NCBI GenBank assembly: GCA_026129305.1
Contig: JAHCII010000006.1
Coordinates: forward strand, 1,056 to 65,055
Direction: 5' to 3'
Length of the DNA: 64,000 nt
Source of the DNA: Anaerolineales bacterium
Lineage (GTDB): Bacteria > Chloroflexota > Anaerolineae > Anaerolineales > UBA11579
The notes beneath the pieces are model-generated. The model did no database searches, was not told the DNA's origin, and saw only the letters and a program-made list of their open reading frames with translations. Every line of letters begins with the position of its first letter. Within the stretch, counting starts at the first letter, position 1. The translations under genes were made by a program, and so were the position numbers. Below are positions 1,401 through 50,343 of this stretch, in pieces.

Positions 1401-3407
1401 CTATGCTTTGAAAAGAGTATTAATGCCTGTCAGGACCTTGTTGAAATTTCCCTCAGCTTGTATTGAATAAGATTTTGATTTTGTTCTTGATAGTTTTAAG
1501 TAAACCATTTGGGCAATACCAATCTTGTCTAATGTTATATCTTCAGGAGGATTTCCGATTTTTGGATTGACTGCCTGTAAGAGTGTCTGGATGTGTTTAG
1601 CTATACTTCCTTTGGCTTTTATTTTGTTTAACTCATTGTCGTCAGGTATCACTACATTGGGCCAAAATTGGCTATAGTATGACTTGAATTCGTTTATGTA
1701 TTCGTCTGCCTCGAAAAGATCCTCGATATCAAAATCTCCTGTGTCCCCCTGTTGAGATAGTTCTTTTACACTCTTAACCTTTTTAGACCAGGTGCTTAAG
1801 CCTGAGCCTGATAACTTCTTTTTCAGGTCACTATATTTTTGTCCAGAATCAACAATCGCTACCCAGTTCACTTGGTTCTTGGATTCTTTTCCTAGAAATA
1901 GCAAATATAGTGGCACTTTATCAATCCCCGCCACAGGAATAAAGCTCCGAGTTAGCTCCGAAAAATCCGTTGACCATTTTTTAGCAATTGAGTTGTTTTG
2001 AAAATACTTCAACCAAGCTTGCAGATAGAAATAATCAGAAACCCCCTCAACAACAACGTGCTCTTTTCCTGTAAGCAGTTCCTCCCCAACAAACAAGGCC
2101 AAAGCTTCTCGCAATGGAGAGGATAATTCTTCGTCTTTCCAAAATCTTTTATGGACTACTGTGCCGTTTTCTTTATTTGGGCCATCTTGCACATTTTCTA
2201 CAACATATATTCTTTCTAGCCTTTGCCAGGGCATCATCATTGGTTGATGTGTAGTGTAAATTATTTGTGAATCTCGAGAAATATCTTCAAAGAACGACTT
2301 TAAATCCATCTGCGATCTTGCATGTAAATCCCGTCCCGGTTCATCAAAAAGCCAGAGTACGTTTTGTTTGTTTTTGCCTGCAATGGCTAATCGGGTATAG
2401 AATCGCAAAAACCATTTTTCACCTTCGCTTAAGTCCTCAAGGCGGATTGCTCGCCCTTGAGGGTTTCTGACATTAAATGTTAATAAGTCTCCGCGATCGA
2501 TATAAACTATGAACTCCAGCCTATGTGTTTTCCACACATTCCCGATTTTTGTAGATAAAGTTTCACTCGCCGAATCCTGAACTGCAACTAGCCTTGTATG
2601 AGTCGCGGTTTCGAAGCTGTCGGCAGTCTGGCCTGATAGTTCTAACAGGTCATACAGAAATGGATGGCCTTCTCTCTCTTTAAGAGAGGCTACTGGCGCT
2701 TGACTTTCAATACCATAGTCCGCTATATCCAAAAGCTCAATGCTTAAATTATCGAATGCATTTCCAAGTATCTGCTCTGTGTTGATTTTTAATTTTTTCT
2801 CAACATTGCTAATTTGTTGTGGGAGTTCAGCAATGATTTCACTGAGTGAATCTCCAGGTCCCTTTAATTCTTCAATTAATTTCTCGATTTCTTGGAAATC
2901 CTTTTCATCGAGTTTGGCAACTAGCTGTAAGATCTTCTCCTTTTCTGGTCCCTTGTCAGGGAAAGAACCTAAGTCTGTCTTGTCAACTAAATTCCTTATT
3001 TCTGTTATTCGGCCGCGGATAAGTTCAAGGTCGACCGATGCGGGTTCACCAGATCCAATTGAGGAAATCTCGATTTTTGCTTTTTGTCCTCGAGCTTTTG
3101 AGCAAAACACCTCAAAGCCTTCAGTGGCATTGGGAACTAAACCGAGGTTTTCTAGTATAGGTGCGTCCGCCTCAGTGAACAAAAATCGAGCTTTGATTAC
3201 TAAGTCTTTATCTTGCAGAGGGTCTGCATAGAAATCATCGTCACTGATTGAGGCAGGCTTTTTCAAACTTGCAAGAGCGCGCAAGATGTTTGATTTTCCG
3301 GTGCCATTTCCACCGATAAAAGTGGTAATGTTTGTGTCAAAGGTTGTAAAACCTTCAAGTTCTTGGACCGATCGATAATTCTTTATTGTGAAGCTAACTA
3401 ATCTCAT
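1401..3407 (-). CDS. ABC/SMC-type ATPase fused to a TOPRIM-like nuclease domain (OLD-family / fused PARIS AriA-AriB-like); candidate defence protein
   Basis: 668-aa ORF with a GGGAGGA RBS. The N-terminus MRLVSFTIKNYRSV is typical of AAA_15/21 ATPases. Motifs: Walker A GGNGTGKSN, signature-like LSEGEKWF, Walker B LWLFDEPGRDLH, and H-loop TTHQP. The TOPRIM-like segment reads HVVVEGVSDYFYL ... VAIVDSG. The gene is strongly AT-rich compared with its neighbours. Confidence 0.8.
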   Translation of the reverse strand: MRLVSFTIKNYRSVQELEGFTTFDTNITTFIGGNGTGKSNILRALASLKKPASISDDDFYADPLQDKDLVIKARFLFTEADAPILENLGLVPNATEGFEVFCSKARGQKAKIEISSIGSGEPASVDLELIRGRITEIRNLVDKTDLGSFPDKGPEKEKILQLVAKLDEKDFQEIEKLIEELKGPGDSLSEIIAELPQQISNVEKKLKINTEQILGNAFDNLSIELLDIADYGIESQAPVASLKEREGHPFLYDLLELSGQTADSFETATHTRLVAVQDSASETLSTKIGNVWKTHRLEFIVYIDRGDLLTFNVRNPQGRAIRLEDLSEGEKWFLRFYTRLAIAGKNKQNVLWLFDEPGRDLHARSQMDLKSFFEDISRDSQIIYTTHQPMMMPWQRLERIYVVENVQDGPNKENGTVVHKRFWKDEELSSPLREALALFVGEELLTGKEHVVVEGVSDYFYLQAWLKYFQNNSIAKKWSTDFSELTRSFIPVAGIDKVPLYLLFLGKESKNQVNWVAIVDSGQKYSDLKKKLSGSGLSTWSKKVKSVKELSQQGDTGDFDIEDLFEADEYINEFKSYYSQFWPNVVIPDDNELNKIKAKGSIAKHIQTLLQAVNPKIGNPPEDITLDKIGIAQMVYLKLSRTKSKSYSIQAEGNFNKVLTGINTLFKA

Positions 3408-3556
3408 ATTCCTCCCGCAGGATTTTATTATACATAATCAATAATGCAAAGTTGGTTTTGTAATACAGTTCACATATCTGAGTCGCTAGCCCAAGTTTGC
3501 CGATTGAGCTGGGCTTGCCTGGGATGGGTAGCACAGCTTGACTAAGGAGGCGCGTG

Positions 3557-3964
3557 ATGACACTAAATAAGTACCGCCCCTGGTTCTACGCTGCGGCGTT
3601 GTACAACCTGCTCTGGGGCGCGCTGAATATCCTGTTCCCCGCGGCGCTGTTCGGTTGGATCGGCATGCCGCCGGCCGACACGGCGATCTGGCAGGTAGTC
3701 GGCATGTTCGTGCTGGTCTACACGCCGGCCTACTGGTGGGCGGCCCGCGACCCGGAGCGGCACCGCCATCTCATCGTCATAGGCCTGCTGGGCAAGCTGC
3801 TCGGCCCGCTGGGCTTCGCCTGGGCGCTGGCGGCCGGGCGGCTGCCGCTGGCCTTCAGCTGGGTGATCCTGTTCAACGACCTGATTTGGTGGCCGGCCTT
3901 CTTCGGCTTCCTGCGCGAGATGGCGCGAGGTCACGGCTGGAAGGCGCTGATCACAGGACAATAG
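3557..3964 (+). CDS. small integral membrane protein (4 predicted TM segments), function unknown
   Basis: AAGGAGG RBS at 3544-3550, 6 nt before the ATG at 3557. The sequence is hydrophobic, Trp-rich and helical. The antisense ORFs here look like GC shadows. Confidence 0.65.
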   Translation: MTLNKYRPWFYAAALYNLLWGALNILFPAALFGWIGMPPADTAIWQVVGMFVLVYTPAYWWAARDPERHRHLIVIGLLGKLLGPLGFAWALAAGRLPLAFSWVILFNDLIWWPAFFGFLREMARGHGWKALITGQ

Positions 3965-4034
3965 ACCCATCCCAGGCGGCGGCCGCCGCTCTACAATGAG
4001 GGCAATAAACGGCCTCTATTGATAAGGAACAGCC

Positions 4035-9645: not shown

Positions 9646-11337
9646 TCAGCGTCCGTAAAGTTTGCGGAAGCGTTTTTCAGCCTCGGGCGAACCTATCAGC
9701 ACCAAATGGTCGTTGTCTTGCAGTGGGCGGAAAGGGTCTGGTGTTGTGTGCAGTCGACCATCCTGTTGCAGGCCGACCACGGTACAACCGGTCTTGCGGC
9801 GAATATCTGTCTCTGCCAAGGTTTTGCCGACCAGTGAATCAGGTGTATCTACTTCAAAGATATCCAGACCCTCCGCGACCATCAAAATATTTTCGCGGCT
9901 GATCAAGTTAATCATCGTGTTGGCGCCTGTGGAAGCATAGGAGAGGACGAAATCGGCGCCCGCGCGGTGTAATGTGGCGTCGTTGCGTTCCAGATTGGCG
10001 CGGGAGACAATTTGAACATCCGGGCGCAACCGGCGGCAATAGATTGTCAAGTAAATGTTCATGTCGTCATCGTGGGTGGTGATGATCACCGCGGGGGTTT
10101 GATGAATGCCAGCTTCGACCAGCAATTCGATTTCAGCCGCGTCTCCTAAAATGTACTTCTGCGAGTTGCGAATACGCGCCGGATCCTTCTCAATGATACG
10201 GTAATCCATGTTGCGGGCGGCCAGCGCCTGGGCAGCTGCACGGCCAACCCGGCCGCCGCCAATAATCACGACAGGGCCATCCAGCGGGTTGGTAGTCTGG
10301 AAGAACACCCGGTTGTACTGAGCGATCTGATCCTCAGAGCCCGCGATGACCAGGACGGTATCCTCGGCGATGGCTGTCTCGGGCTGGGTGGGCTGAAAGA
10401 CACCATCCTGCCAGATGCCAAGGACATTGATTCCGGCCAGCTCGCGCAGGCGGCTTTCTTTGAGGGTTTGGCCGACGAGCGAGGTATTGCGCACCATGGC
10501 CTCAGCAATGATTAGCTCGCCAAATTGACCGATTGGGTGGGTGAGGCGCTCGTTGTCGAGCACGCGCCGGGCCAAGGCCTGCCCCATCATTTCGCCCAAC
10601 TCCAAGACATGCGTACTGCCGGCCAACTCCAAAATATCGACTGAGGCGTGGAAGTTGGCCGTTGAAATAACGGGAACGGTCTCTGAGACCTCGCGTACCG
10701 TGGAGACAATGTTTGCATTAACCTGATCGCTGGCTGTGGCCACAACCAGGCGAGCCTGATGAGCTTGCGCAAAATCGTAGGTCTTGGGATTGTCCAGATA
10801 TCCCCTCATAATCTTATACCCTTGGTTATGCAGATCCAGCGCCTCCTGGAGGCTGGCGACCAGCAAGACATAGGGGAAGCCATATTGCTCCAACCTGCGG
10901 ATGAACGACTTGGTCACAGGGTCGAAGTGGGTGAGGATAATATGTCCGGAAGTTTTGGCTGGCAGGCTAGTAGGAGCACGGGCGGCCTGCTGAGCGCGCA
11001 TCCAGGGCTCGTAGAAGAGCTCAATGAACGTGAAAGGCAACAAAATTAGCAGGAAGACGATCCCACTCAGCAGAACAACGACAGAAAAGATCTTGCCCAA
11101 ATCAGATTGGAAAATGATGTCGCCAAAACCGAGAGTGGACATCACCGTCAGTGTCCAATAAAAGCCGGTCACCCAGGTCTGCGACCTGCCTTCATATTCC
11201 ATGATGAAATGGAAGATGACGCTGTAGGCGGTGATCATGATCACCAACACAAGAAAAAATCGCAGCAAGCCCACTGCATTCACACGGTTTGACCTTTCAG
11301 TCAGCAGGTGCGGAATTTGGGCAAAAAGGAATTTCAT
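9646..11337 (-). CDS. potassium channel with two RCK/TrkA domains
   Basis: Selectivity filter TLGFGD after two TM helices. Rossmann GGGRVGRA and two TrkA-N/TrkA-C-like repeats follow. Confidence 0.9.
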   Translation of the reverse strand: MKFLFAQIPHLLTERSNRVNAVGLLRFFLVLVIMITAYSVIFHFIMEYEGRSQTWVTGFYWTLTVMSTLGFGDIIFQSDLGKIFSVVVLLSGIVFLLILLPFTFIELFYEPWMRAQQAARAPTSLPAKTSGHIILTHFDPVTKSFIRRLEQYGFPYVLLVASLQEALDLHNQGYKIMRGYLDNPKTYDFAQAHQARLVVATASDQVNANIVSTVREVSETVPVISTANFHASVDILELAGSTHVLELGEMMGQALARRVLDNERLTHPIGQFGELIIAEAMVRNTSLVGQTLKESRLRELAGINVLGIWQDGVFQPTQPETAIAEDTVLVIAGSEDQIAQYNRVFFQTTNPLDGPVVIIGGGRVGRAAAQALAARNMDYRIIEKDPARIRNSQKYILGDAAEIELLVEAGIHQTPAVIITTHDDDMNIYLTIYCRRLRPDVQIVSRANLERNDATLHRAGADFVLSYASTGANTMINLISRENILMVAEGLDIFEVDTPDSLVGKTLAETDIRRKTGCTVVGLQQDGRLHTTPDPFRPLQDNDHLVLIGSPEAEKRFRKLYGR

Positions 11338-11405
11338 GACGATGGATGGCGGAGGCTATGCTTACGTGGGCTTCTCTTCCATTTGGGCCGCCGTAGACGC
11401 CTTAA

Positions 11406-13319
11406 CTATAGCGGCGCTTCAGCGTGATAGGGCACATCGATTATAACGATATCCCTTTGAGCCACTAATCGGGCTTTTAAGCGATCCGCTGTTCCACTGT
11501 GAAGGAAACGCACCAACCAGTTCTCAGTTACGAATTCTGGGATCACTACTGTTGTAAGCTTCTCGGGAAATTCTTCATTATTGACCTTGGTTATGTATTT
11601 TTCCAATGGTTCAAAGATGTCACGGTAATCATAGTTGATTAAAACTAATTCGACATCTTTGGTGATTGCGGAAAAGCGCTTCCATCGCTCTCTAATATGC
11701 TCTTCGACCTGCGAATTGGTGATTATGGAAACAACGCGGACATCGCGAGAAAGGCGCTTTGCATACTGTATCGCCAACAAGCTACCGTGGTGGATATCTG
11801 CCACGGGCACGATAACCACGTTAGCCACTTTGGGAAGTTGCCGTATAGAAAGACCTTGAGTGCTTAGGTGTTGGGCGAGATGCTTGTAGTGTCTGTCTAC
11901 CAAATAGAACAAGAGCATAATGAGTGGAATCATTAGCATCACGATCCACGCGCCTTCTACGAACTTTGTTGCCACCAGAATCAGAAACACAACAAACGTG
12001 ACAACGGCCCCAAAGGCGTTTAACGCTTGTTTCCAGGTGGCGTTGGCTTCATAGTGGATCTCTGTGACTAAAGTTTGTAGCTTTTGCCCCGGTTTCAAAT
12101 GGCGAATACGCCCCATTAGCCGAAACATGCCTATTTGCGAGACACTAAAGCTAAACATTACGCCCAGCGCGTAGAGGGGCAGCATCGCGATCTCATCTGC
12201 CTGAAAGGCAATAACAATTATTGATGAAAAAATAGCAAGGACATAAATACCAGAGTTAAACACCAAGCGATCCCCGCGGTTTTGTAGCCAGCGGGGCAAG
12301 AAGCCGTCACGAGCCAAGAAGGAACCAAGCCGAGGAAAGTCCTGATATCCAGTATTGGCAGCTAAAAGCAAAATAAGCGCGGTGAAGGCTTGCACCCAGT
12401 AATAAAGAATGCCATTGCCTGTGACTTGGCGAGTCAACTGCGAGAGAATACTTTCCCCTTCGTGGGGAACTAACTCAAGATGTGTGGCAAGAAAAGTAAT
12501 TCCCAAGAAGAGCGACATCGCCATAATACCCATAGCTACCATGGTTAGCGCCGCATTTTTTGATTCCGGCGATTTAAAAGCCTGCACACCATTACTAATC
12601 GCCTCAATTCCGGTCAAGGCTGTACACCCACCGGCAAAGGCGCGCAAAATGAGCCAAATATAAGCAAACCCTTCTACGGAAGCGGTGGCTGCAACCTGCT
12701 CATGGAATGGGGAGATGGGCGCTGCCCCAAACAGGCCAAGATAGCGCACCAACCCAATAGCAATAACCACCCAAACTCCACCCACAAACGCATACGTAGG
12801 CACAGCAAAAACGGTCCCGCTTTCACGCACTCCTCGCAGATTTATCCAAGTAATAAACAGGATTGCCCCAATAGCAAACAAGACCCGGTATTCAAACAAC
12901 TCTGGAAAAGCAGAGGTAACCGCTCGAACTCCCGCAGAAACGGACACAGAAACCGTGAGAATGTAGTCCGTAAGCAGAGCGGCGCCAGCCGCTAAAGAAG
13001 GATACTTTCCCAGATTATCTTTCGCAACTGTGTAAGCTCCACCCCCATCAGGGTAGTGCAAAATGGTTTGTATGTAGCTGAAAATGACAAGTAAAACCAG
13101 CCCGGCAACACTTATCCCTATGGGTAGGGTCATATGCAGAGCGCCACTTCCTAGGACAATTAATACGCTCATGATTGCCTCAGTCGCGTAAGCATTGGAG
13201 CTAATAGGGTCAGAAGCGAATACGGCTAAACCTCTAACCTTGTCTAAACGCTCATGTGCTTCTCGGCTATTCGGAAATGGCTTGCCGAAGAAGATGCGCT
13301 TCAATCCTTGGATATTCAT
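11406..13319 (-). CDS. APC-superfamily amino acid/polyamine permease with a C-terminal soluble domain
   Basis: The N-terminus MNIQGLKRIFFGKPF...LAVFASDPISSNAYATE is followed by about 12 TM helices. The ORF track start at 13343 is an alternative. Confidence 0.8.
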   Translation of the reverse strand: MNIQGLKRIFFGKPFPNSREAHERLDKVRGLAVFASDPISSNAYATEAIMSVLIVLGSGALHMTLPIGISVAGLVLLVIFSYIQTILHYPDGGGAYTVAKDNLGKYPSLAAGAALLTDYILTVSVSVSAGVRAVTSAFPELFEYRVLFAIGAILFITWINLRGVRESGTVFAVPTYAFVGGVWVVIAIGLVRYLGLFGAAPISPFHEQVAATASVEGFAYIWLILRAFAGGCTALTGIEAISNGVQAFKSPESKNAALTMVAMGIMAMSLFLGITFLATHLELVPHEGESILSQLTRQVTGNGILYYWVQAFTALILLLAANTGYQDFPRLGSFLARDGFLPRWLQNRGDRLVFNSGIYVLAIFSSIIVIAFQADEIAMLPLYALGVMFSFSVSQIGMFRLMGRIRHLKPGQKLQTLVTEIHYEANATWKQALNAFGAVVTFVVFLILVATKFVEGAWIVMLMIPLIMLLFYLVDRHYKHLAQHLSTQGLSIRQLPKVANVVIVPVADIHHGSLLAIQYAKRLSRDVRVVSIITNSQVEEHIRERWKRFSAITKDVELVLINYDYRDIFEPLEKYITKVNNEEFPEKLTTVVIPEFVTENWLVRFLHSGTADRLKARLVAQRDIVIIDVPYHAEAPL

Positions 13320-13424
13320 GCAATTCGATCTGCTTTCCGGCAAGCATATGCCTGCACAAGCCGGATATTATATAATACCGAAGGACAATTTTCACCCCTT
13401 TTACGGAAAATTGGCGAGCAAGTC

Positions 13425-14279
13425 ATGATCATAGTAGATTCGCTTACGTACAGCTACAAGACTGTCAAGGCTCCAGCCATCCAAGGCTTATCTTTCGAGG
13501 TGAGACCTGGAGAGGTGTTTGGCTTCCTTGGCCCCAGCGGCGCTGGAAAATCGACAACCCAAAAGGTTCTCACGGGCCTGTTACGTGATTTTTCTGGCCA
13601 TGTATCCGTTTTCGGACGCGATCTGACCACATGGGGGTCCGATATGTATGAACGCATTGGCGTGTCATTTGAGATCCCCAACCTTTATTTAAAACTTAGC
13701 GGGCATGAAAACTTACGCTACTTTGGCGCGCTCTATGAGGGCAAGAAGCTTGATCCACAGGAACTGCTCTCTCTGGTAAATCTGAACGACGACGGCAAGA
13801 TGCTGGTTTCGCAATACTCCAAGGGCATGCGCCATCGACTTAATGTTGCGCGTGCGCTTATTCACAATCCCGAATTGCTTTTTATGGATGAACCCACTGC
13901 CGGTCTGGACCCGGTAAATGCCCGCCGAATAAAGGAAATTGTGATGGCGCAGCGTGATGCCGGCAAGACGGTGTTCCTCACAACACACGATATGAGCGTG
14001 GCAGATGAACTCTGCGACCGCGTGGCGTTTATTGTTGATGGCCGAATTGCGCTCATCGATTCGCCGCGGGCACTTAAGCTCAAATACGGCACAGCCAATG
14101 TACGCGTTGAGTATGAGGAGAATGGAGCCCTTGCAAGTAAAGAATTCAGCATGAGCGACCTGGGGACCAATCAGCAATTCTTGGATGTGCTGCGCAACCA
14201 CAGCGTGCAAACCATGCACTCCACCGAAGCCACCCTGGAAAGTATCTTCATCGAAGTAACCGGCAGAGATCTGTCGTGA
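13425..14279 (+). CDS. ABC transporter ATP-binding protein (ABC-2 exporter type)
   Basis: Walker A GPSGAGKST, signature YSKGMRHRL, and Walker B LLFMDEPTAGLD. I prefer the start at MIIVDSLTYSY over the track start at 13254. Confidence 0.9.
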   Translation: MIIVDSLTYSYKTVKAPAIQGLSFEVRPGEVFGFLGPSGAGKSTTQKVLTGLLRDFSGHVSVFGRDLTTWGSDMYERIGVSFEIPNLYLKLSGHENLRYFGALYEGKKLDPQELLSLVNLNDDGKMLVSQYSKGMRHRLNVARALIHNPELLFMDEPTAGLDPVNARRIKEIVMAQRDAGKTVFLTTHDMSVADELCDRVAFIVDGRIALIDSPRALKLKYGTANVRVEYEENGALASKEFSMSDLGTNQQFLDVLRNHSVQTMHSTEATLESIFIEVTGRDLS

Positions 14280-14980
14280 ACCGCTTGTTTGCCACAATGC
14301 AGACGGATCTACATCTGCAGATCCGCAATGGCTTTTATTATGCGGTGGTCTTTGTTGCCGTTGTGCTTGTGGTTGCGCTTACACGCCTCAGCATCCCGGA
14401 CTACCGGCATGTATGGCCGATCCTGATCATTGGGAACCTGCTGATCACCACTTTCTATTTCATGGCTGGACTTGTCCTTCTTGAAAAGGCAGAGGGCACG
14501 ATGGAAGCGCAAATCATCACCCCGCTGCACCCTGCGGAGTACCTGATTTCAAAAGTACTCACGCTCGGGCTCCTCTCGCTATTGGAAACCGCTATCATCG
14601 TGGTACTGCTCTCGGGTTTGGCGTTTAACTGGCTGCTGTTTGTTCTGGGTGTGCTGATAACGGCCGCAATCTACAGCTTGTCTGGTTTCATTGCTGTAGC
14701 CGCCTATGACTCACTGAATGAATTTATCTTTCCTTCAGTGCTCTGGGTGCTGGCCTCTTTGCCCCCAATTCTCTATGCTGCCGGAGTCTCTGACCATTGG
14801 TTGTTCTGGCTGCACCCGTTACAAGCTCCACTTATTGTTTTGCGCGGCGCGTTCAGTGAGATTCCGGCATGGCAGTTGATCTTTGGTATTGGATATGGCG
14901 CGGCCTGGTCGGCTTTATTGCTCTATGCCGCGTTGCGTGTTTTTAGGCGCTTTGTCATCCGCCGGGAAGGAGTGAAGTAA
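14276..14980 (+). CDS. ABC-2 type exporter permease
   Basis: GTGA overlap with the ATPase stop codon. Six hydrophobic helices. Confidence 0.75.
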   Translation: MNRLFATMQTDLHLQIRNGFYYAVVFVAVVLVVALTRLSIPDYRHVWPILIIGNLLITTFYFMAGLVLLEKAEGTMEAQIITPLHPAEYLISKVLTLGLLSLLETAIIVVLLSGLAFNWLLFVLGVLITAAIYSLSGFIAVAAYDSLNEFIFPSVLWVLASLPPILYAAGVSDHWLFWLHPLQAPLIVLRGAFSEIPAWQLIFGIGYGAAWSALLLYAALRVFRRFVIRREGVK

Positions 14981-15017
14981 AACGAACGCCTTCAAAGCCC
15001 TCCGCTCTCTCGGACCT

Positions 15018-15728
15018 GTGGACTTACGCGGGATTCGTCGTGACAGCATGCTGTCATACATTGCTGTCATGCCCGTGGTTTTTGCCTTGCTTTTCCGCTT
15101 TGTAATACCGTGGATTCGTGCACAATTTTTAGAAAGAGCAGGATTCGACATCGAGCCTTTTTACTTCTTGGCGATGAGCTACTTTTTCGTGATGCTCTCC
15201 AGTGCCTTTGTTGGCCTGGCGCTTGGATTTTTGGTGCTGGATGAGCGCGACAGCCAAACTCTGCAGGCACTTTTGGTTTCGCCGCTCTCGATCAGCAGCT
15301 ATATCGCCTACCGCATCAGCTTACCGGTGGTTCTCTCGATGTTGGTTACTCTGATTGCCTTTCCCATTGCCGGTCTTGGTAATTTAAGCATAGCGCAGCA
15401 GCTGGTTGTAGCACTCGCTGCTGCGCTGCTCGCCCCGCTTTGGATGTTGTTCCTGGGTGGCTTTGCCGCCAACAAAGTTCAGGGTTTTGCCCTGGTCAAG
15501 GCTGCCGGCTTTATCATGCTTATGCTGCCCATGTTCAGTTACTTTGTTAGTTCTAACTGGCACTGGGCTTTCGGAGTGCTGCCTCCATTTTGGCCACTCA
15601 AGATTTACTGGTTACTCGAATCGGGTGAAGCGAATGTCTGGGCATATCTTGCGATAGCACTAGCCTATCAGGCATTGCTACTCTGGCTTCTTCTTCGTCG
15701 ATTCCTGAAAGTAGTCTATTCTCAATAG
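15018..15728 (+). CDS. ABC-2 type exporter permease (second subunit)
   Basis: Polytopic hydrophobic ORF immediately downstream in the same operon. Confidence 0.75.
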   Translation: MDLRGIRRDSMLSYIAVMPVVFALLFRFVIPWIRAQFLERAGFDIEPFYFLAMSYFFVMLSSAFVGLALGFLVLDERDSQTLQALLVSPLSISSYIAYRISLPVVLSMLVTLIAFPIAGLGNLSIAQQLVVALAAALLAPLWMLFLGGFAANKVQGFALVKAAGFIMLMLPMFSYFVSSNWHWAFGVLPPFWPLKIYWLLESGEANVWAYLAIALAYQALLLWLLLRRFLKVVYSQ

Positions 15729-15750
15729 CTACTACACTGCACAAGCGCTT

Positions 15751-15779
15751 AAAAAGAACGGCCGAAAGGCCGTTCTTTT
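15751..15779. terminator. bidirectional intrinsic terminator between convergent genes
   Basis: AAGAACGGCC-GAAA-GGCCGTTCTT, a 10-bp stem with a GNRA loop. It is flanked by an A-run on one side and a T-run on the other. Confidence 0.8.
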
Positions 15780-15780
15780 G

Positions 15781-16344
15781 CTATTTCTTGCGCTTGAACT
15801 TGCCCGCCGGCTTCTTCTCCTCCGCGGGGGCAGGGGGCGGTTCTGCGGGCGGCGGTTCCGGCGCAGCCGGTTCGGCTGGCGCCTCCGCCTGGGGCGCCTC
15901 GCCATTCGCCGGGGTTGGCGAGGCTTCCTCGGCAGGCGCCGCGTCTGCTGCGGGCGGGGGCTGAAGCTGCAGCTCGACTTTCTCTTCCATCTGGATCTGG
16001 CCGCGCAGGAAGGCGCCTTCTTCGGTGGCCATGGAGGCGGTGGTGACGTTGCCCCACACGCGACCGTTGGCGCGGATCTCGACCCGCTCGGCGAGGATGT
16101 CGCCGCGCATCGCCCCGGCGATGATCACATGCCGGGCGCGCAGCTGCGGGCAGGTCACCCGCCCGGTGGGGCCGATGACGAACAAGCCGTCCAGCTCGAT
16201 CTCGCCGTCAAAGGCGCCTTCAATGCGCACGCCGCCGGCGCCGTGCAGGCGGCCGCTCAGGCTGACGCCGTCCGCCACCACGGAGGTGATGCGCGGCAGC
16301 GGCGCGGCTTCTTTTTCCGGCGAGGCGTTCTTGCGGCGGAACAT
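15781..16344 (-). CDS. bactofilin (polymer-forming cytoskeletal protein) with a Pro/Ala/Glu-rich tail
   Basis: Beta-helical repeat core: VSLSGRLHGAGGVRIEGAFDGEIELDGLFVIGPTGRV...RGDILAERVEIRANGRVWGNV. Confidence 0.85.
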   Translation of the reverse strand: MFRRKNASPEKEAAPLPRITSVVADGVSLSGRLHGAGGVRIEGAFDGEIELDGLFVIGPTGRVTCPQLRARHVIIAGAMRGDILAERVEIRANGRVWGNVTTASMATEEGAFLRGQIQMEEKVELQLQPPPAADAAPAEEASPTPANGEAPQAEAPAEPAAPEPPPAEPPPAPAEEKKPAGKFKRKK

Positions 16345-47175: not shown

Positions 47176-48060
47176 GTGTTCGGCGGCAATGACGCCCGCT
47201 GGTGGGATGGCGGCCAGCAAGTGCAGGCCAGCCAACCCTTTGCCCCCCGCAAGATCGACAACCCGCTGGACAAGATGACCCGCCGCCAGAGCGGACGTCG
47301 TTCGCGCACCCACACGGAGCGCAAACGCGGCCGCTACATCCAGGCGCGACCGGCCGGCAATGACCTGAGCGATATCGCCTTCGACGCCACCTTCCGCGCC
47401 GCGGCCCCGCACCAGCAGGCCCGCAAGGAGCAGCGCAAGCAGATGGCTTTCGCCATCCAGCGCCAGGACCTGCAGCGCAAAGTGCGCGTCAAACGCGCCG
47501 CCAACTTGGTGGTCTTCGTGGTGGACGCTTCCTGGTCCATGGCGGTGTCTGAGCGTATGGCGGCCACCAAAGGCGCCATCCTCTCACTGCTCACCGACGC
47601 TTACCAGCGCCGTGACCGGGTCGGGCTGATCGTCTTCCAGAAAGACCGCGCCAACCTGATCCTGCCGCCGACCAACTCGGTGCAGCTGGCGCAGCGCGCC
47701 CTGGCGGACATCCCAGTGGGCGGCAAGACGCCGCTGTCGGCCGGCTTGGCACTGGCCTACGAAGTTATCTCGCGCGAAAAGCGCCTGCATCCAGACGTGA
47801 TGCCGCTGATGATCCTGCTGACCGACGGCGCCGGCAATGTCTCGATTGGCCCAGGCGATCCCAAAAAGGAAGCGCAGCACCTGGCGGAACAGATCGCCAA
47901 TGATGAGATCCGCAGCGTGGTGGTCAACATGGAGCATGCCGCTTTTGACCAGGGCCTGGCCGACCAACTGGCCGAGCATCTCAAGGCCCCCTGCTATACC
48001 CTCGGCGAACTGCGCGCCGAGAGCCTGTACCAGACCGTGCGCGAGCAGATGGGGCGCTAA
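47176..48060 (+). CDS. ChlD/BchD C-terminal-like VWA domain protein (start uncertain; frame open back through the A10 run at 47100-47109)
   Basis: MIDAS motif VVDASWSM...GGKTPL...LTDGAGN, and ChlD-like DIAFDATFRAAAP. There is no convincing RBS or ATG. The track start is a GTG. Confidence 0.8.
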   Translation: MFGGNDARWWDGGQQVQASQPFAPRKIDNPLDKMTRRQSGRRSRTHTERKRGRYIQARPAGNDLSDIAFDATFRAAAPHQQARKEQRKQMAFAIQRQDLQRKVRVKRAANLVVFVVDASWSMAVSERMAATKGAILSLLTDAYQRRDRVGLIVFQKDRANLILPPTNSVQLAQRALADIPVGGKTPLSAGLALAYEVISREKRLHPDVMPLMILLTDGAGNVSIGPGDPKKEAQHLAEQIANDEIRSVVVNMEHAAFDQGLADQLAEHLKAPCYTLGELRAESLYQTVREQMGR

Positions 48061-48785
48061 AGCGCATCGAAGTAGCGGGCCAGTTCGGCCTTCAACGCCT
48101 CAACTGAATCAAAGACGAACAGAACTTCATTGAAGGTGTAAATCGCCTTCTCATAGCCGATCACGTTTTCCATGGTAAAAGGCCGTACCGGCGTTTTGCC
48201 TTGCATCACATGCTGGATCTCGCCATACGAGGACAGCAGCCCTGCCCCAAAGACCTTGGTCTGGTCGCCTTGGCGGATCAACCCAAATTCTGTACTGAAC
48301 CAAGCCAGCCGTTTAATGTTCTCGCGTTGCTGCGGGGTGGCTTTCAGGAAGGCAGGGGCGAACAGCTCCTGCAGGGCGGTGTAGCCCGGCAGAACCATGA
48401 AGGGCAGATGGCCGAAGATGTCGTGGAACATGTCCGGCTCAGGCGTGAAGTCCATTTCGTGCCGCTCGCGCATATAGTCGGTGATCAGGAACTGGCGTTT
48501 GGCGAAGTGATGGTACCAGGGCACCGCGTCGGAGTAGCGCACCACCGTGCGCACCGTGCGCCAGCCGGTGCGCGGCGTGATGGCGGTGTTCAACTCAGCC
48601 AGCTGGGGGATACGCTCGGCGGACAACCCCAGCAGTGCAAAGCCTTGCAGATATTCGGCGCAGGCGTATTTTTGGACATTGGGCAGCTGGCGGGCGTACA
48701 GGTCACGCCAGACCGCGTGCTGCGCCTGGCTGAAAGCCAGGTCGCGGCCGCTGAGGGCGACAGTTTCGTTGCGGTGCAGGGTCAT
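48057..48785 (-). CDS. phhA: phenylalanine-4-hydroxylase (biopterin-dependent aromatic amino acid hydroxylase)
   Basis: PEPDMFHDIFGHLPFM contains the Fe-binding His residues, plus FGLIRQGDQTKVFGAGLLSSYGE. AAGGAGAG RBS at 48791-98 before the ATG at 48785. The track start at 49076 was rejected. Confidence 0.9.
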   Translation of the reverse strand: MTLHRNETVALSGRDLAFSQAQHAVWRDLYARQLPNVQKYACAEYLQGFALLGLSAERIPQLAELNTAITPRTGWRTVRTVVRYSDAVPWYHHFAKRQFLITDYMRERHEMDFTPEPDMFHDIFGHLPFMVLPGYTALQELFAPAFLKATPQQRENIKRLAWFSTEFGLIRQGDQTKVFGAGLLSSYGEIQHVMQGKTPVRPFTMENVIGYEKAIYTFNEVLFVFDSVEALKAELARYFDAL

Positions 48786-48810
48786 TTCTTCTCTCCTTGG
48801 CCGCTTAAAC

Positions 48811-48842
48811 AAAAAAACCACAGGCCGTTTGCCTGTGGTTTT
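48811..48842 (-). terminator. intrinsic terminator (segments 3:4 of the attenuator) in the phhA leader
   Basis: The minus strand reads AAAACCACAGGC-AAACG-GCCTGTGGTTTTTTTGTTT. It lies about 26 nt upstream of the phhA ATG. Confidence 0.75.
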
Positions 48843-48865
48843 GCTAAGCGGGGTTCGCGAAGTGG

Positions 48866-48946
48866 TTACTCTGGACAGGACAAAACGGCCAAGTCGGACT
48901 CGGCATAATAGTAGACGTACGCGTGGGAGCCGTTTTGGAATGCCAT
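48866..48946 (-). CDS. candidate 26-codon leader peptide MAFQNGSHAYVYYYAESDLAVLSCPE (Tyr-codon cluster)
   Basis: My own translation. Four Tyr codons fall within codons 10-14. The ORF overlaps attenuator segments 1 and 2. The ATG lies 8 nt after an extended -10, so the mRNA would be leaderless. Confidence 0.5.
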   Translation of the reverse strand: MAFQNGSHAYVYYYAESDLAVLSCPE

Positions 48947-48954
48947 TGGCCGGG

Positions 48955-48963
48955 ATTATAACA
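48955..48963 (-). promoter_or_regulatory. extended -10 promoter element TGTTATAAT for the phhA leader
   Basis: On the minus strand: TGT TATAAT, then CCCGGCCA, then ATG. No good -35 hexamer. Confidence 0.45.
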
Positions 48964-49062
48964 GGCGACGCTATTTTGGCGGCCAGGTTTTGTGAAATCG
49001 TCGATGTGTTGGTTGACCGCCTGAGAGGTCTATTAAGGGGCATCTTGATCCTAAGTTGAAAC

Positions 49063-49090
49063 AAAAAGACCCACAAGCGTGGGTCTTTTT
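49063..49090. terminator. terminator downstream of tRNA-Val
   Basis: AGACCCAC-AAGC-GTGGGTCT flanked by an A-run and a T-run. Confidence 0.8.
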
Positions 49091-49101
49091 GTAAGGTGCT
49101 A

Positions 49102-49178
49102 TGGTGGGCGCGATAGGACTCGAACCTACGACCTTTGCGATGTCAACGCAACGCTCTAACCAGCTGAGCTACGCGCCC
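49102..49178 (-). tRNA. tRNA-Val (anticodon GAC), CCA encoded
   Basis: The minus strand reads GGGCGCGTAGCTCAGCTGGTTAGAGCGTTGCGTTGACATCGCAAAGGTCGTAGGTTCGAGTCCTATCGCGCCCACCA. All four stems pair. Confidence 0.95.
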
Positions 49179-49188
49179 AAGGAGCGGA

Positions 49189-49194
49189 ATTATA
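49189..49194 (-). promoter_or_regulatory. -10 box TATAAT upstream of tRNA-Val
   Basis: A perfect hexamer 10 nt upstream of the mature tRNA 5' end. The -35 is weak. Confidence 0.35.
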
Positions 49195-49364
49195 CCGCTA
49201 TCCACAGAATCATAGGCATAAATGGCTTGCCTGGCGTGTTCTTCGCCCGTTCCTGAGAATGTTGATGATCGCGAATGAACAGACCCATTTGATCTCAGTC
49301 AAAATGCTGAAAATCTGTAGTGCTTCCCCGGCGAGCTCGACCACTCAAACCCCCGTTTATAATG

Positions 49365-49399
49365 TAGTATATATACTATATATGATAGTAGTTATACTA
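49365..49399. promoter_or_regulatory. two operator-like palindromes upstream of the ABC operon
   Basis: TAGTATATATACTA (49365-78, perfect 14-bp palindrome) and TAGTAGTTATACTA (49386-99). Their centres are 21 bp apart, just downstream of TATAAT (49358-63). Confidence 0.55.
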
Positions 49400-49431
49400 C
49401 AGCGTCAAACGCTAATACAAGAAGGAAGAAG

Positions 49432-50343
49432 ATGCCAAATAAAGATACAGCCATAGAGGTTACGGGCCTGCAGATGCGCTATGGCGACCATGTGGTTCTG
49501 GATGGAGTGGATTTTGCGCTGCGCCGCGGTGAGGTGCTGGTGCTGTTGGGCCCAAATGGGGCAGGCAAAACAACCATCATTGAGATTTTGGAAGGCTTTC
49601 GGGCGCGCTCTGGCGGAAGTGTCAGCGTGCTTGGCATTGATCCCGAACAGGCTGACGAGGCCTGGCGCGCCCGGGTGGGGATTGTGTTGCAATCGTGGCG
49701 TGATCATTCGGCCTGGCAAGTGCGAGAGTTACTCAGCCACTTTGGCAAATACTTCGGACCGTATTCAACCGTTGAACGGCCGCGCCCCATTGGAACGGAT
49801 GAATTGCTTCACCTGGTTGGCCTGACGGACCAGGCCCACAAGAAGGTGCGCGATCTCTCGGGTGGACTGCGTCGCCGCCTGGATGTAGCCATCGGGCTGG
49901 TGGGCAATCCTGAGCTTCTCTTTCTGGATGAGCCGACGGTGGGATTCGACCCGAAGGCCAGGCGTGAACTTCATGACGTTATCCACCGGCTGGCTGACAT
50001 GCAAGGGACGACTATTTTGCTGTCCACACATGATCTGGATGAAGCCGAAAAATTGAGCGATCGGATTCTGATCTTAGCCGGGGGCAAAATTGTTGCCGAC
50101 GGAAGCGCGGATCAGCTCACGAAGGAATTTTCCAATCAGACAGAGGTGATTTGGACCCAAGACAATCAACGCCATGTCCATGCGGGCAGTGATGCTACGA
50201 CCTTCGCCCGCAAGCTATTGGCTCAGCATCCTGAAGGCATTAGCAACCTGGAAATTCGACACGCAAGCCTGGAAGATACCTACATGAATATTGTCCAAAC
50301 ACATGAGGCCAACTCCAAAGCGCAAAAAGGAGACACGCAGTGA
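49432..50343 (+). CDS. ABC transporter ATP-binding protein (ABC-2/DrrA-like)
   Basis: Walker A GPNGAGKTT, signature LSGGLRRRL, and Walker B LLFLDEPTVGFD. GAAGGAAG RBS. Confidence 0.92.
   Translation: MPNKDTAIEVTGLQMRYGDHVVLDGVDFALRRGEVLVLLGPNGAGKTTIIEILEGFRARSGGSVSVLGIDPEQADEAWRARVGIVLQSWRDHSAWQVRELLSHFGKYFGPYSTVERPRPIGTDELLHLVGLTDQAHKKVRDLSGGLRRRLDVAIGLVGNPELLFLDEPTVGFDPKARRELHDVIHRLADMQGTTILLSTHDLDEAEKLSDRILILAGGKIVADGSADQLTKEFSNQTEVIWTQDNQRHVHAGSDATTFARKLLAQHPEGISNLEIRHASLEDTYMNIVQTHEANSKAQKGDTQ

Follow-up and report, generated by a model that had tools for sequence, protein, structure and literature searches.

What controls phhA, a gene for a putative phenylalanine-4-hydroxylase, in a member of the Anaerolineales, and does the short Tyr-rich open reading frame (ORF) in front of it take part in that control? 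The question is raised by a stretch of 64,000 nucleotides from an Anaerolineales bacterium (contig JAHCII010000006.1 of assembly GCA_026129305.1), referred to here as the window. In it, phhA (242 aa) lies on the minus strand at 48057..48785, with its ATG at 48785, behind a leader that contains an upstream ORF (uORF) with a run of Tyr codons and an intrinsic terminator. A preliminary description had taken this leader for a classical four-segment attenuator. We conclude that this leader probably controls phhA by ribosome-mediated (leader-peptide) transcription attenuation, with charged tRNA-Tyr as the signal that is sensed, a reading to which we assign a probability of roughly 80% on sequence-based evidence. 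The anatomy of the leader, its energy ordering, its conservation and its covariation were established computationally, as set out below.

All elements of the leader lie on the minus strand. An extended -10 promoter element, TGTTATAAT (48955..48963), which can be read directly from the sequence and is not accompanied by a recognisable -35, is followed 8 nt later by the ATG (48946) of the uORF. The uORF has 26 codons plus a stop (48866..48946), encodes MAFQNGSHAYVYYYAESDLAVLSCPE and is not preceded by a Shine-Dalgarno (SD) sequence. Its codons 10, 12, 13 and 14 specify Tyr (48905..48919, TAC GTC TAC TAT TAT), so that four Tyr codons fall within five positions; these are the presumed regulatory codons. 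Segment 1, CAAAACGGC (48929..48937), is the partner of segment 2 in a perfect 9-bp helix and would act as the anti-antiterminator. Segment 2, GGCCGTTTTGTCCTGT (48875..48890), is the 5' strand of the antiterminator as judged by folding, duplex energy and covariation with segment 3; counted from the first base of the last Tyr codon it begins 17 nt downstream, and its 3' end lies 6 nt short of the stop codon. Segment 3, ACAGGCAAACGGCC (48823..48836), is the alternative partner of segment 2, with which it forms a 14-bp duplex, or of segment 4, and spans the 5' arm of the terminator, its loop and the first 3 nt of its 3' arm. The terminator, CCACAGGC-AAACG-GCCTGTGG followed by T7, has an 8-bp GC-rich stem (hairpin 48838-48818, T7 48817-48811) and begins 27 nt after the uORF stop. 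Because the phhA ATG is at 48785, the gap between the T-run and phhA is 25 nt; the preliminary description had put it at about 26 nt, and was otherwise accurate in its placement of the promoter element, the 8-nt gap, the uORF, the Tyr codons, the pairing segments and the terminator when the minus strand was checked. The SD of phhA itself, AAGGAG (48793..48798), lies 7 nt before the ATG and is not sequestered: it is unpaired in the leader folds, which argues against a read-out by occlusion of the ribosome-binding site.

We found that the window leader folds better than shuffled sequences (z = -3.0 and -3.5), and that its unconstrained minimum free energy (MFE) structure consists of the 1:2 helix, a small hairpin within the uORF and the 3:4 terminator. 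The 2:3 duplex has an energy of -20.0 kcal/mol versus -10.7 kcal/mol for dinucleotide shuffles (z = -3.8, p = 0.007), the 1:2 duplex one of -17.5 kcal/mol versus -11.2 for shuffles (z = -2.2, p = 0.037), and the 3:4 terminator hairpin one of -14.2 kcal/mol. It follows from these energies that 1:2 and 3:4 together beat 2:3, and that 2:3 beats 3:4 alone. We then carried out masking folds, in which the RNA occupied or separated by a ribosome was removed and the pairing probability of the terminator stem was computed. For the window leader this probability was 1.0 both without a ribosome and with one at the stop codon; with the ribosomal A site in the Tyr run it was 0.92 at the first Tyr codon and 0.05 at the last. 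Thus the folded RNA loses its terminator when a ribosome stalls late in the Tyr run and keeps it when the ribosome reaches the stop, both of which the preliminary description had anticipated from the geometry alone. The expected switch is seen in the window and in about 15 of 23 loci, a mixed result overall.

The mechanism that we propose would work as follows. Transcription would start a few bases past the extended -10, so that the mRNA begins at or next to the leader AUG; because the uORF lacks an SD and starts 8 nt after the -10, we infer that this mRNA is leaderless. When Tyr-tRNA is plentiful, a ribosome would pass the four Tyr codons to the stop and cover the 3' part of segment 2, and after its release segment 1 would re-pair with segment 2. 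Segment 3 would then be free for segment 4, and the CCACAGGC/GCCTGTGG hairpin with its U7 would end transcription 25 nt short of phhA. Under a shortage of Tyr-tRNA, the ribosome would stall on codons 12-14, segment 1 would be held away, and segment 2 would be exposed 17 nt downstream. The 14-bp 2:3 antiterminator (-20 kcal/mol) would now out-compete the terminator (-14 kcal/mol), RNA polymerase would read into phhA, and PhhA would make Tyr from Phe. Several points of this scheme are predictions: where transcription starts, that the mRNA is leaderless, that the uORF is translated, that transcripts end at the terminator in vivo, and that expression responds to Tyr. The small hairpin within the uORF, GCCGAGTCCGACTTGGC (48888..48904), is followed by CGTTTTG and overlaps the 5' end of segment 2. 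It was scored as terminator-like by the terminator scan and is mostly kept in the relative L109 (loci are designated by L numbers), whose PhhA is 96% identical to that of the window; one may speculate that it is an RNA polymerase pause site that synchronises ribosome and polymerase.

A protein search of genome and metagenome collections yielded 108 phhA loci. Of the 43 genome loci that were usable, 27 have a uORF with at least three Tyr in six codons upstream of phhA, as do about 30 of the metagenome loci. In all, 47-48 distinct leaders have a short Tyr-rich ORF (3-5 Tyr in six codons) followed by a terminator and then by phhA; they come mostly from Anaerolineales, with others from elsewhere in the Chloroflexota, one from a metagenome-assembled genome (MAG) of the Gemmatimonadota (L039) and one from a MAG of the Acidimicrobiia (L031). 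Such runs are rare outside this context: at least four Tyr in six codons occur in none of 4,634 background short ORFs taken from the window and 44 loci, versus 21 of the 210 ORFs upstream of phhA. Neither the window nor the flanking sequence of the loci contains the element upstream of a gene other than phhA. Across subfamilies the peptide keeps the Tyr run alone, while its N-terminal and C-terminal parts and its length vary freely. Across the family, Tyr is encoded by TAT (92 codons) and TAC (89 codons) about equally; the Tyr run is therefore under selection for its decoding and not for its nucleotides.

The signals for expression of the uORF are also conserved. Among 48 leaders, 32 have a TAnnnT -10 hexamer 6-12 nt before the uORF start, 24 of these with the TG extension, and six others have an SD before the uORF. 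This pattern speaks for genuine translation of the uORF throughout the family and, in most members, for an mRNA that is leaderless. The preliminary description had likewise suggested a leaderless mRNA for the window, and the conservation in relatives of the spacing between extended -10 and ATG favours that suggestion, with the leaderless state itself still a prediction. An archaeal locus was also recovered: in Archaeon GW2011_AR15 (CP010425.1), a 16-codon ORF, MHKPAAQSKYSYYYYC (L023:2885-2935), lies about 95 nt upstream of a phhA homologue of 59% identity, and the type of terminator described below is absent. It may reflect horizontal transfer of gene and leader, or its leader may have a different read-out.

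Terminators are present in essentially all loci with a Tyr-rich uORF, at a median distance of 28 nt from the uORF stop (47 leaders). The automatic terminator finder missed those with interrupted T-runs (L016, L018, L022, L065, L067, L068, L076 and L103), and hairpins are visible by manual reading in all eight. In 46 of the 108 loci there is a single stem of the form CCACRGG...CCYGTGG, in every case immediately before phhA; in the 64-kb window the CCACRGG-type pattern has one occurrence versus 0.03 expected. Among 21 aligned relatives the terminator is 98.8% paired and almost invariant. Its stem sequence is thus kept across phyla while loops, peptides and flanks diverge, which is unusual for an intrinsic terminator. 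A double constraint, from pairing with both segment 2 and segment 4, is probably the reason, and the conserved stem may also have an extra binding partner. The CCACRGG terminator is also kept upstream of phhA in five loci in which the uORF is Tyr-poor or cannot be delimited: the maximum number of Tyr per six-codon window is two in L061, L077 and L088 and zero in L064 and L073, with only about 60 nt of upstream sequence in L064. These leaders may be degenerate or differently tuned versions.

The pairing between uORF and terminator provides a further test, as the terminator loops vary greatly from locus to locus (for example AAACG, AGACAACG, CACCAG, GCGATCCA and GAGTTCCAAC) and each is complemented by the 3' part of its own uORF. 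Relative to dinucleotide shuffles, the 2:3 duplex has a mean z of -1.86, with p < 0.05 in 12 of 23 loci. In a permutation analysis, each variable loop region was paired with 41 uORF tails, its own and those of 40 other loci. The mean for cognate duplexes was -17.5 kcal/mol, which was attained in 0 of 5,000 permutations (p of about 2e-4), versus -13.9 kcal/mol over all pairings, and the cognate duplex was among the top three in 14 of 41 cases. In the alignment of 21 sequences, the 2:3 pairs of the window are paired in 83% of cells versus 29-48% in slid controls, and 17 cells have changed on both sides, a count reached by 0 of 500 shuffles; one such covarying pair is CG nine times and UA eight times. 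The geometry is kept as well. Segment 2 starts at least 13 nt past the last Tyr codon in 44 of 47 leaders and ends at most 15 nt before the stop in 37 of 47, and 2:3 is more stable than 3:4 in 41 of 47.

Relatives within the same class provide an independent indication of what is sensed. Two Anaerolineae loci have a T-box upstream of phhA, at 2621-2937 in L012 and at 2538-2762 in L013, and neither has a Tyr uORF; the leader of L058 resembles that of L013, with a T-box and no Tyr uORF. Scores with RF00230 are 51 bits for L012 (E = 3.5e-10) and 48 bits for L013 (E = 1.9e-9), where the Rfam gathering score is 93, and the T-box motifs AGAGA, GGUGNUG and GGUGGUACCGCG are all present in both. Read in the register that the Rfam consensus sets, both loci have UAC (Tyr) as their specifier. 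Regulation of phenylalanine hydroxylase (PAH) by a T-box has been reported in the B. cereus group (PMC2494555), and the exchange of a T-box for a leader peptide, or the reverse, on one and the same gene has been described before (PMC2965389).

The computational parts of the proposal that phhA is subject to Tyr-tRNA-sensing attenuation are thus upheld by the masking folds, by conservation, by covariation and by the T-boxes in relatives. Several results nevertheless count against this proposal and need to be weighed. A scan with the full sigma-70 consensus finds no promoter in the leader region, because the -35 is absent and only the extended -10 is present; the case for a promoter is therefore made from the extended -10 and the conservation of its spacing. 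Equilibrium folds keep the terminator on stalling in L001, L010, L014 and L020. In 11 of the 23 loci the 2:3 duplex, taken singly, does not reach significance, and in the group L003-L009 the 2:3 pairing is no better than in shuffles (z of about -0.3). A register shifted by +1 reads the T-box specifier as ACC (Thr) in both L012 and L013. The best NCBIfam models for the gene product, which are phenylalanine 4-monooxygenase equivalogs, score below their cut-offs (212 versus 247 bits, and 188 versus 265), so that the label 'phhA' is a family-level call. The switch would also be tied to transcription-translation coupling in Anaerolineae. Finally, conservation of the 1:2 helix does not extend to the whole family (mean z = -0.3).

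This last result bears on the alternative that survives best, which is an attenuator of three segments that depends on coupling. It too would sense Tyr-tRNA through the uORF, but the 1:2 helix would have no part in it and an untranslated leader would be read through by default. The outcome would depend solely on the position of the ribosome, which would leave segment 2 free when at the Tyr codons and cover it when at the stop. Apart from the limited conservation of the helix, such an arrangement would account for L003, L004, L006, L015 and L036, in which the ribosome-free fold favours the antiterminator (terminator probability 0.0-0.04). The window itself behaves differently, with its perfect and better-than-shuffled helix and a ribosome-free terminator probability of 1.0. 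The helix is also unchanged in L109, is longer by one G:C pair in L110 and L048, and shows a compensatory A:U to G:C change in L111; in the 21-sequence alignment it is 64% paired versus 32-51% in slid controls. We therefore regard the three-segment alternative as unlikely. As the 1:2 helix is not family-wide, the conserved core comprises three segments (the uORF with 2:3 and 3:4), and the form with four segments is an addition within a subfamily, one that would make termination the default when the leader is untranslated. The classical four-segment architecture of the preliminary description consequently stands for the window and its closest relatives and does not extend to the family. The same division applies to its expectation for orthologous leaders: the Tyr-rich ORF, 2:3 and 3:4 are conserved and 2:3 covaries, while 1:2 is not kept family-wide.

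It might also be supposed that the uORF encodes a functional Tyr-rich micropeptide, either the precursor of a modified peptide or a partner of the hydroxylase, and that the hairpin is merely the terminator of that small gene. The ORF is indeed conserved, has translation signals and always adjoins phhA. The Tyr run alone is conserved across subfamilies, however, and the C-terminal coding part covaries as RNA with the terminator loop. A constitutive terminator 25 nt before a promoterless, SD-led phhA would moreover silence that gene, and relatives have a T-box in place of the ORF. We give this explanation very little credence.

A comparably small chance attaches to a leader RNA that binds a ligand, a protein or a tRNA directly, as a riboswitch or degenerate T-box would, with the ORF irrelevant. 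In its favour, the CCACRGG stem is unusually conserved in sequence for a terminator, and T-boxes act on the same gene in relatives. Yet an Rfam scan of window positions 48000-50000 at E up to 10 found no leader family (Trp_leader, Phe_leader, His_leader, Leu_leader, Thr_leader and others) and no T-box, its only matches being the neighbouring tRNA and chance ones, and a scan of 20 loci at the gathering threshold gave no matches. Upstream of the terminator the leaders share no structured aptamer; conservation is seen in the reading frame, in the identity of the Tyr codons with free synonymous change, and in the start signals. The remaining idea, a chance ORF with a coincidental Tyr run in front of a terminator that insulates phhA from read-through of the tRNA-Val gene 150 nt upstream, is effectively refuted by the comparative data, since that tRNA gene has its own terminator, most orthologous loci lack an upstream tRNA yet have both uORF and terminator, and the background count of comparable ORFs is zero.

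The product of the regulated gene belongs to PF00351, the biopterin-dependent aromatic amino acid hydroxylases. Related proteins that are 75-96% identical to it are encoded in Anaerolineales MAGs and named phenylalanine-4-hydroxylase by JGI, and among solved structures the nearest are those of bacterial PAHs (E = 1e-38). Conversion of Phe to Tyr is its predicted activity. In the window phhA is monocistronic, because the next gene is convergent. In L110 (1381-1722) and L111 (1386-1703), a small gene with weak or faint Pfam matches to the antibiotic biosynthesis monooxygenase (ABM) domain follows phhA on the same strand, and may be co-transcribed with it under the attenuator.

Directly upstream of the leader promoter lies a tRNA-Val(GAC) gene (49178-49102, minus strand) with its own strong terminator, the two together occupying 49062-49178; a spacer of about 95 nt separates that terminator from the extended -10. 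Synteny of a tRNA gene and phhA is also seen in L001, L006 and L040. Elsewhere in the window, G+C content falls to 0.47-0.54 at 2001-4000 and 10001-16000 versus about 0.62 in the remainder, and these stretches may be acquired islands.

As to precedent, neither a phhA leader peptide nor a Tyr-specific attenuator was found in the literature searched, although the survey by Lopatovskaya, Seliverstov and Lyubetsky 2010 (Mol Biol 44:128) may contain an earlier prediction; this agrees with the preliminary description, which knew of no attenuator for phhA. The same literature ascribes tyrosine control to T-boxes or to protein regulators (TyrR, PhhR), and its only leader-peptide attenuator with Tyr codons is aroR of C. 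glutamicum. A survey of Actinobacteria placed tyrosine under T-box control and found no RNA element for tyrosine (PMC1262725).

On balance we lean, with some reservation, towards a broader interpretation, namely that these leaders are the first Tyr-specific attenuator to be described: mostly leaderless Tyr-run uORFs, joined to an antiterminator and terminator that covary, which control phhA in Chloroflexota both within and outside the Anaerolineales, have copies in Gemmatimonadota and Acidimicrobiia and perhaps in a DPANN archaeon, and are swappable with a Tyr T-box within one class. The PAH concerned would then be anabolic and induced by Tyr starvation, and not catabolic. Such an attenuator would fill a gap by adding a new specificity to a textbook mechanism, would extend leader-peptide attenuation to the Chloroflexota, and would add a case of transcription termination to the sensory ORFs on leaderless mRNAs. 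To our knowledge, almost no experimental data on gene regulation exist for the Chloroflexota. The element would also mark the short PAH clade as a source of tyrosine, which could help metabolic reconstruction of uncultured Anaerolineae, for example in the prediction of Tyr auxotrophy. The occurrence of leader peptide and T-box on orthologous genes in one class would represent a natural swap of sensors around a conserved terminator.

The amino acids with known leader-peptide attenuators are Trp, Phe, His, Leu, Thr and Ile/Val, together with Cys, for which the form is translational. The window leader resembles the enterobacterial attenuators (trpL, pheL, hisL, leuL, thrL and ilvL) in its short ORF, its clustered cognate codons, its mutually exclusive 1:2, 2:3 and 3:4 pairings and its terminator before the structural gene, and the energy ordering and ribosome geometry also match. 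It differs from them in that Tyr would be sensed, in that the target is phhA instead of a shikimate or terminal-pathway operon, and in its host, a member of the Chloroflexota. In addition, the enterobacterial uORFs are SD-led whereas the one described here is apparently leaderless, the 1:2 helix is dispensable in much of the phhA family, and the phhA leader is not homologous, in sequence or in structure, to the leader families in Rfam.

Three other systems share particular features with it. The polycysteine short ORFs of mycobacteria (Canestrari et al., bioRxiv 10.1101/834739) likewise combine a leaderless ORF, a run of codons for one amino acid, ribosome stalling and downstream biosynthetic genes. 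Their mechanism is translational, however, the stalled ribosome blocking a structure that sequesters the ribosome-binding site, whereas an intrinsic terminator is present here, and the amino acid and the phylum are different. The aroR leader upstream of aroF in C. glutamicum is, like the phhA leader, associated with aromatic amino acid metabolism, is a ribosome-mediated attenuator and contains a Tyr codon. According to the account of Neshat et al. 2014 in PMC11802643, its sequence is Phe-Tyr-Phe, it responds to Phe, and Tyr was reported to be without effect; the phhA leaders, in contrast, have 3-5 Tyr codons and no Phe run. The third system is the Tyr T-box on PAH in the B. cereus group (PMC2494555), which has the same target and the same logic, with uncharged tRNA-Tyr leading to antitermination and to expression of PAH. 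The two differ in how charging is perceived: the T-box contacts the tRNA directly, RNA to RNA, whereas in the window leader it would be the ribosome that reads charging through the codons.

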